This document shows positions 926 to 2,365 of a DNA stretch of 16,450 bases, piece after piece. The DNA comes from a virus (Duplodnaviria; Heunggongvirae; Uroviricota; Caudoviricetes), in IMG/VR virus record IMGVR_UViG_2537561618_000007. The stretch is one strand, 5' to 3'. Positions within the stretch are counted from its first letter, which is position 1. Every line of letters starts with the position of its first letter. The position numbers were made by a program, and so were the translations under genes. The notes under the pieces were generated by a model, which had not been told where the DNA came from, made no database searches, and saw only the letters and a program-made list of their open reading frames with translations.

Positions 926-966
926 TGAAGTGGCACACTGAATTTGGCCACCTGAACAGAGGTGAT

Positions 967-1299
967 ATGCTCACCTCAGAACAACACAGGTGCTCCAATG
1001 AAAAAAGAAATTTTAGCGCAGAGTTTAAACGCGAATCCGCTCAACTGGTTGTTGACCAGAAATACACGGTGGCAGATGCCGCCAAAGCTATGGATGTTGG
1101 CCTTTCCACAATGACAAGATGGGTCAAACAACTGCGTGATGAGCGTCAGGGCAAAACACCAAAAGCCTCCCCCATTACCCCGGAACAAATTGAAATCCGT
1201 GAGCTCAGGAAAAAGCTACAACGCATTGAAATGGAGAATGAAATATTAAAAAAGGCTACCGCGCTCTTGATGTCAGACTCCCTGAACAGTTCTCGATAA
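967..1299 (+). CDS. IS911 OrfA; the expected ATG (998..1000) is out of frame, and the only in-frame ATG inside the IS is at 967
   Basis: Body translates ...[98 protein letters not shown]. The ATG at 998 is followed by six A then G, which puts it out of frame with this body. Confidence 0.6.
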
Positions 1300-1325
1300 T
1301 CGGGAAACTCAGAGCGCATTATCCT

Positions 1326-2165
1326 GTGGTCACACTCTGCCATGTGTTCGGGGTTCATCGCAGCAGCTACAGATACTGGAAAAACCGTCCTGAAAAACCA
1401 GACGGCAGACGGGCTGTATTACGCAGTCAGGTACTTGAGCTACATGGCATCAGCCACGGTTCGGCCGGAGCAAGAAGCATCGCCACAATGGCAACCCGGA
1501 GAGGCTACCAGATGGGACGCTGGCTTGCTGGCAGGCTCATGAAAGAGCTGGGGCTGGTCAGCTGTCAGCAGCCGACTCACCGGTATAAACGTGGTGGTCA
1601 TGAACATGTTGCTATCCCTAACTACCTTGAAAGGCAGTTCGCCGTGACCGAGCCAAATCAGGTGTGGTGCGGTGATGTGACCTATATCTGGACGGGTAAG
1701 CGCTGGGCGTACCTCGCCGTTGTTCTCGACCTGTTCGCAAGAAAACCAGTGGGCTGGGCCATGTCGTTCTCGCCGGACAGCAGGCTCACCATGAAAGCGC
1801 TGGAAATGGCATGGGAAACCCGTGGTAAGCCCGGCGGGGTGATGTTCCACAGCGATCAGGGCAGTCATTATACGAGCAGGCAGTTCCGGCAGTTATTGTG
1901 GCGATACCAGATCAGACAGAGTATGAGCCGGCGCGGAAACTGCTGGGATAACAGCCCAATGGAACGCTTCTTCAGGAGTCTGAAGAACGAATGGATGCCG
2001 GTGGTGGGTTACGTAAGCTTCAGCGAGGCAGCTCACGCCATAACGGACTATATCGTTGGATATTACAGTGCACTAAGACCGCACGAATATAACGGTGGGT
2101 TACCCCCAAACGAATCGGAAAATCGATACTGGAAAAACTCTAACTCGGTGGCCAGTTTTTGTTGA
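1326..2165 (+). CDS. IS911 OrfB (DDE transposase catalytic domain), normally made as an OrfAB fusion by -1 frameshifting
   Basis: ORF-track product ...[21 protein letters not shown]...[13 protein letters not shown]...[12 protein letters not shown] matches IS911 OrfB. The -1 frame is open from the slippery A AAA AAG at 1248..1254. Confidence 0.8.
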
Positions 2166-2173
2166 CCACTTCA

Positions 2174-2365
2174 CCGGCATCTGTTTTGATGCTTGAAAAA
2201 CAACGTAACGGCGAAGGTTGGGAAGGTGGTGTTCCGTTGTTCCTTGACGAGCAATCGCACCAGTTCCTGCAACTTGAATCAGGATCGCCATATAGCTACA
2301 TCGCCAATATGCCGAAATCGGAATATGACGAGGCGTGGCGACAGGAAAACGTGACGGAGTATTAA
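2174..2365 (+). pseudogene. Probable 3' remnant of a DnaB-family helicase gene truncated by IS911
   Basis: Frame open from the IS911 end to a TAA at 2363..2365. Peptide ...SVLMLEKQRNGEGWEGGVPLF... carries the KQRNG motif also present in the intact helicase of this window (ITKQRNGSLG). Confidence 0.4.

Follow-up and report, generated by a model that had tools for sequence, protein, structure and literature searches.

IS911, a member of the IS3 family first described in Shigella dysenteriae, serves as a paradigm of copy-out/paste-in transposition. In Shigella, recombination between dispersed insertion sequences drives deletions and inversions, and IS911 copies that lack a target duplication and are flanked by gene fragments are routine. 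Here we consider one such copy, which by its sequence is a standard IS911 but on balance probably does not stem from one insertion event, being instead a hybrid of two copies whose run of six A residues (6-A run) at the start of orfA is most probably a homopolymer miscall. According to the passages in PMC2909936, PMC7986276, and PMC9333248 that cite Loot et al. (2002) and Rousseau et al. (2008), IS911 also inserts beside its own inverted repeats.

The window, i.e., the whole stretch of DNA that was analyzed (16,450 nucleotides), is the entire contig AFHC01000021.1 of the draft assembly GCA_000213475.2 of Shigella flexneri 4343-70. It belongs to a cluster of lambdoid prophage remnants riddled with IS copies. 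The left flank of the element (1-925) differs from S. flexneri 2457T by no substitution and no indel. At the contig edge lies a part of IS600, 98.7% identical to copies annotated as "IS3-like element IS600 family transposase," within which an HTH_Tnp_1 gene was called on the minus strand (1-226). Two further IS600-type copies in inverted orientation and another IS3-family element were noted at 12200-15750, so that, together with the left-edge IS600, at least four IS3-family copies are present in 16 kb. Four tRNA genes (Met-CAT, Arg-TCT, Thr-TGT, and Gly-TCC) occupy 9373-9683, between the prophage Q antiterminator and holin genes. The features of the element and its surroundings are as follows (a slash marks an IS/flank boundary, or the corresponding position in an uninterrupted gene):

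1-303, minus strand: partial IS600, cut by the contig edge; DUF1367 is interrupted by IS600
524-814, plus strand: ybcO-like DUF1364 gene of prophage module 1 (PF07102)
811-925, plus strand: 5' fragment, 38 codons long, from a DUF1133 (Q-like) gene that IS911 interrupts; PF06576 matches residues 1-39
923-925, no strand: GTG, taken as the left-hand repeat of the 3-bp target duplication made by the original DUF1133 insertion (L010, L021, and L024 read GTG/IS911/GTGGCGGTAAG)
926-2173, plus strand: IS911, 1248 bp
926-961, plus strand: left terminal inverted repeat (IRL), TGAAGTGGCACACTGAATTTGG..., common to all copies
1248-1254, plus strand: A6G programmed -1 frameshift site of orfA/orfB, intact
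1326-2165, plus strand: orfB frame with the rve DDE catalytic domain (PF00665 and PF13683), a 279-aa ORF, intact
2138-2173, plus strand: right terminal inverted repeat (IRR), ...CAGTTTTTGTTGACCACTTCA
2174-2365, plus strand: 3' fragment (last 63 codons, about 190 bp) of a phage toprim primase gene, starting at CCGGCATCTG

Judged by its sequence, the 926-2173 segment is IS911 by every criterion tested. The left end, TGAAGTGGCAC..., starts at 926 and the right end, ...GACCACTTCA, closes at 2173 (in longer form, TGAAGTGGCACAC... from 926 and ...TTGACCACTTCA to 2173). The terminal inverted repeats are imperfect, starting with 5'-TGAAGTGG and ending with CCACTTCA-3'; the 36-bp extent of IRL was taken from PMC2909936. 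Identical ends were found in about 30 other aligned IS911 copies, hence the boundaries are not a matter of alignment choice. The nucleotide identity to E. coli copies annotated as "IS3-like element IS911 family transposase" is 99.0% over 1248/1248 bases, and the sole difference from the majority S. flexneri allele is one missing A. The coding part consists of orfA (HTH; PF01527, HTH_Tnp_1) and orfB (DDE/rve), overlapping in the -1 frame, and a simulated slip at A6G gives an uninterrupted OrfAB-like product of 399 aa from ATG967. The two departures discussed below, the missing duplication and the 6-A start, concern this copy and not the IS911 family. A different single-base loss was noted in E. 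coli YJ4 (L002, NZ_AP023230.2), whose IS911 is one A short in the A6G slippery run itself, at the position aligned to window 1248; that element is also 1248 bp long and its record still annotates a programmed-frameshift transposase.

The first departure concerns the target site. The bases outside IS911 are GTG (923-925) on the left and CCG (2174-2176) on the right, with no 3-bp duplication, and moving the IS911 ends by 1-4 bp does not produce a 3-bp one. The preliminary description had reported this difference and was correct about the flanking bases and their coordinates; of its span of 926-2176, IS911 ends at 2173 and positions 2174-2176 belong to the flank. A matching duplication upon re-alignment of the ends, which it had named as a refutation, did not appear, the ends matching those of the approximately 30 copies. 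On the left, the intact 184-aa DUF1133 gene of E. coli (L004) continues GTG/GCGGTAAGACG; on the right, the intact toprim gene reads ...CTGGCATCT/CCGGCATCTG (L005), and a complete copy of 968 aa is kept in JANXIZ010000001.1 (L053). The left flank belongs to a DUF1367/DUF1364/DUF1133 prophage module, while the right one, the toprim 3' end followed by phiTE_015 and ninB, belongs to another. In a search of 5,426 complete E. coli genomes with the joined flanks, no instance of the two being contiguous without an IS was found, and both sides mapped to different prophage modules. Microhomology at the junction, indicated by left-flank matches running 4-6 bases beyond it, was considered and rejected as alignment run-on: intact DUF1133 continues GCGGTA, not CCGGCA.

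The second departure lies at the start of orfA, where the reading frames are arranged as follows:

998-1006, plus strand: canonical orfA start ATG and A-run of six (seven in other copies), A x6 at 1001-1006, then G
967-1299, plus strand: alternative in-frame ORF of 110 aa, with AGAGGTG 4 nt before ATG967
811-1299, plus strand: in-frame fusion ORF of 162 aa from ATG811, composed of DUF1133' (38 aa), an IRL-encoded linker, and OrfA

Canonical orfA initiates at ATG followed by AAAAAAA G (MKKRNF...); this copy lacks such a start, and ATG998 as read gives a 38-aa dead-end peptide. That six A stand after ATG998 where an in-frame start needs seven had been noticed before and holds at 1001-1006, and translation of the frames proved exact the earlier claim that OrfA can be translated only from ATG967 or as a fusion from 811; the AGAGGTG motif upstream of ATG967 was also seen where described. 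The 110-aa ORF carries a 12-residue N-terminal peptide in place of the first two residues (MK), followed by OrfA residues 3-100. A sigma-70 scan of 700-1100 detected no promoter upstream of ATG967. The fusion ORF owes its existence solely to the 6-A run and has been recorded on one contig alone, AFHC01000021.1 (EGJ90432.1). When one A is added, the canonical 100-aa OrfA is restored, identical to that of S. flexneri 2457T.

Whether the 6-A run is a real deletion or a homopolymer error was the question posed by the preliminary description. We keep that framing: the clustering of 6-A copies in old drafts and the seven A of the orthologues tip the balance to error without proving it. The comparison with other IS911 copies that it had proposed was carried out, and seven A turned out to be usual (31 of 34 distinct copies, counted without this contig and without the loci to which the 6-A product had led), with one A missing here; both E. 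coli copies compared have seven. Among loci retrieved through proteins other than the 6-A product, six A occur in three of seven copies from 2011-12 WGS drafts vs. one of 26 from Shigella assemblies that are complete or built from long reads (counting the window, Fisher p = 0.02). The six orthologues of the copy in CP102221.1 (L038), which is the sample's only case from a complete genome, have seven A. The IS911 of CP102221.1 beside the window-5965 site shows further single-base gaps relative to the window, which suggests homopolymer errors in that assembly. Similarly, the orthologous DUF1133 copy of the draft AFHD01000046.1 has six A and two further homopolymer deletions, while 2457T has none. 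The 110-aa product of the 6-A reading occurs on 30 contigs (names include S. flexneri 4343-70 and K-227), compared with 662 for canonical OrfA; a 124-aa form is found in three accessions, of strain K-315. Nearly all of the 110-aa and 124-aa products, among the matches listed, come from the 2011-12 draft batch, and those of 110 aa derive from several unrelated loci per genome, including other 4343-70 contigs. We therefore regard a homopolymer miscall in this draft as the likely source of the 6-A run. The 162-aa DUF1133-transposase fusion EGJ90432.1 is then probably an artefact of one missing A, and a similar artefact probably accounts for the 110-aa and 124-aa OrfA variants of the 2011-12 S. 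flexneri drafts.

A real mutation, arising by slippage or by conversion from another 6-A copy, is a less likely explanation, although one to be taken seriously. A7 tracts are natural slippage hot spots. Finished assemblies, too, hold six A: the complete genome CP026871.1 has such a copy flanked by a 3-bp duplication (L027), and seven related ETEC plasmid records share, at a single locus, the identical 6-A 84-mer. Upstream, the orfA frame remains open, and AGAGGTG precedes ATG967. The unique DNA of the contig also speaks for a real deletion, having no indel relative to finished genomes over at least 11 kb (925 + 6192 bp and about 4.4 kb further right, where overlapping finished-genome alignments reach), a stretch that includes six 7-nt and about thirteen 6-nt homopolymers. 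A general proneness of this contig to homopolymer errors, considered as the cause of the 6-A run, was rejected on the same absence of indels in unique DNA. A literature search did not reveal the sequencing platform of AFHC00000000, which we count against a miscall. However, one batch of old drafts holds a marked excess of the 6-A allele, spread in each genome over many loci that are not orthologous, and the retrieved assemblies with the left junction all have seven A at the orthologous position, except for one draft with further homopolymer deletions. If the six A were real, recent slippage would have moved initiation to ATG967 or to the DUF1133 start. Normal OrfA or OrfAB would not be made from ATG998; possible products would be proteins with a changed N-terminus, started at ATG967, or a DUF1133'-OrfA(B) fusion expressed through transcription of the prophage. 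Only the first residues of OrfA/OrfAB would change, leaving the HTH, the leucine zipper, A6G, and orfB intact.

The origin of the unmatched flanks becomes clearer when each junction is followed in other genomes. At least 12 further Shigella assemblies, among them the finished genome of 2457T (AE014073), share the left junction, ...GGTCGTATATTGGTG/IRL (DUF1133'...GGTG/IRL). In CP026772.1 (L010), UAUS01000007.1 (L021), and K-218 (L024), the same IS911 is followed by IRR/GTGGCGGTAAG, both DUF1133 halves are kept, and GTG stands on both sides; by sequence, this arrangement is that of a simple insertion with the expected GTG duplication. The right junction, IRR/CCGGCATCTG, occurs in two complete genomes, CP026871.1 and CP026776.1 (loci L008 and L012), where the left partner is an integrase fragment and a terminase fragment, respectively. 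Each junction thus exists elsewhere with another partner, and one of them still with its original duplication. Such pairing with other partners is what an exchange between IS911 copies predicts, and the element reads as the left junction of one insertion combined with the right junction of another. The earlier suggestion that the two sides come from different original contexts is borne out by the separate prophage modules and by the other partners of each junction, and these partners support recombination between two IS911 copies, which had been offered as an example.

It is proposed that the element has its left junction from an old IS911 insertion into DUF1133, which would have generated the 3-bp duplication GTG, and its right junction from a second IS911 copy, one that abuts the toprim primase 3' end at CCG. 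Homologous recombination between the two directly oriented copies would then have removed or relocated the intervening DNA, comprising the DUF1133 3' half, a holin fragment, an IS600, and the toprim 5' part, and would have left one hybrid IS911 with unmatched flanks. The partner junctions predicted by this exchange are IRR/GTGGCGGTAAG and ...GGCATCTCCG/IRL or, with the letters of the IS ends, CCACTTCA/GTGGCGGTAAGACG and GGCATCTCCG/TGAAGTGGCAC. The separate existence of both junctions is observed, and the exchange between them is what we infer from sequence comparison. A crossover point sought inside IS911 by means of copy-specific SNPs gave no signal and is not placeable, as the two parental copies, that of DUF1133 and that of CCG (as in L012), have one and the same sequence.

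That IS911 copies do exchange flanks in these genomes is indicated by several other loci. The Rz lysis gene of CP007037.1 received an IS911 insertion with the duplication TTT, the two halves of which now lie about 180 kb from each other: IRR/TTTCGC now follows the DUF1133 copy (L018, ~9782), and AGCTTT/IRL precedes another copy (L049, ~5732). As read from the sequence, this is a clean exchange between two IS911 copies within one finished genome. Nine clustered, mostly third-codon-position differences at 1170-1206 define two IS911 haplotypes, and the orthologous DUF1133 copy carries one of them in 2457T (L020) and CP178302.1 (L019) and the other in G1663 (L018) and the draft AFHD (L026), which indicates gene conversion between copies. 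Moreover, the finished genomes CP026765.1 (L056) and CP026792.1 (L051) contain DUF1133'-IS911(+)-toprim', with the toprim breakpoint 891 bp upstream. The split Rz insertion, the haplotype swaps, and these joins in finished genomes make recombination with loss of intervening DNA the best explanation of the element.

The strongest competitor of the exchange is one that the earlier account did not mention, a mis-join by the assembler across a multicopy repeat. Both junctions would be real in 4343-70 and would belong to two IS911 copies, with the contig threaded through the 1.25-kb repeat. The source is a draft with short contigs, this contig begins inside IS600, and IS911 is multicopy, with further copies annotated in the same assembly. 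The exact join DUF1133'-IS911-CCGGCATCTG was seen in one draft contig only (AFHC01000021.1) and in no other retrieved genome, and the internal sequence, being the commonest S. flexneri allele, does not tie the element to either junction. On the other hand, in drafts of this batch, contigs of 100-330 kb contain IS911 copies whose SNPs are specific to the locus, and such private SNPs mean that the repeats were resolved individually. The equivalent join in the two finished genomes described above and the varying left partners of the CCG junction among finished genomes, which make the swaps real events, also argue against an artefact, and we consider a mis-join improbable.

Still less probable is a transposase-driven adjacent deletion without a second IS911 copy, in which the IRR end of a CP026765.1-like ancestor (toprim' from the CAA site) moved 891 bp further into toprim with deletion of the adjacent DNA: it would yield the same structure, the window differing from L056 only by the loss of 891 bp beside IRR, and several junctions of the cluster are not explicable by homologous recombination alone, but IRR/CCGGCATCTG is also present in genomes with other left partners and the same CCG-junction nucleotide is joined to IRL in three further assemblies, so the CCG junction is old and precedes this arrangement, and copy-out/paste-in elements are not known to make adjacent deletions often. 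An exchange between two IS911 copies thus remains our preferred account of the element in the window.

A separate observation concerns five flanks in the cluster, each of which is attached, at an identical nucleotide, to IRL or to IRR depending on the Shigella genome:

DUF1133', GTG
'DUF1133, GTGGCGG
toprim 5', ...GCGCAA
toprim 3', CCGGCATC
GACATTCTG, at window position 5965

The loci concerned are window 923-925, 2174-2176, and 5965, together with L010, L015, L021, L023, L037-L039, L042, L043, L045-L050, L052, and L054. In homologous recombination, a flank stays with the IS end to which it belongs, and two-ended flanks cannot arise in this way; the unmatched flanks might thus not all stem from RecA-type exchange. 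As insertion is reported to occur beside the element's own inverted repeats, the IS/flank boundary could be a hot spot, and the two-ended flanks might be footprints of IR-targeted IS911 insertion at a resident boundary, or of an in-place flip, a tentative reading that we hold to be rather doubtful. A pair of genomes with identical flanks on both sides and an inverted IS911 was not encountered among the retrieved loci, whose reach fell short. A related structure was noted in AGRC01000020.1 (L011, 3837-3846) and CP026792.1 (L051, ~1040-1049), where a 9-bp IRL tip (TGAAGTGGC) stands between the DUF1133' flank and a complete IS911; it looks like an insertion of IS911 into the tip of a resident copy, followed by the loss of one copy. 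If true, targeted insertion or a flip would represent an IS-driven route of genome scrambling in Shigella for which descriptions have so far come from plasmid assays only. The window's own element can be accounted for without targeted insertion. The biological weight of this IS911 copy is little, and the contig is a useful marker for one rearrangement state of the prophage cluster; the nucleotides at the two-ended junctions are the only point perhaps worth a systematic survey.

Comparison with the targeted insertion of IS911 shows that the natural junctions likewise reuse the exact IS/flank boundary and that one copy lies 9 bp inside an IRL tip. The difference is that the pathway, as presented in the passages cited above, was defined in plasmid assays, and its part in these junctions we only infer. 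With IS911 itself, the element shares the terminal repeats, the 99.0% nucleotide identity, the orfA/orfB -1 frame arrangement with the A6G slippery site, and a 3-bp duplication at the ancestral insertion of the left junction. It differs in that the flanks of this copy are unmatched, six A instead of seven follow the orfA ATG, and its length is 1248 bp, whereas the measured 7-A copies have 1249 bp. The closest resemblance is to IS-mediated rearrangement and gene decay in Shigella: the IS is hybrid, with the flanks of two insertions, truncated prophage genes stand on both sides, and many partner combinations exist among related strains. A hybrid IS911 flanked by gene fragments is known biology and nothing new, and with respect to rearrangements of this kind the locus differs in nothing essential, adding one more instance to those described in Shigella.
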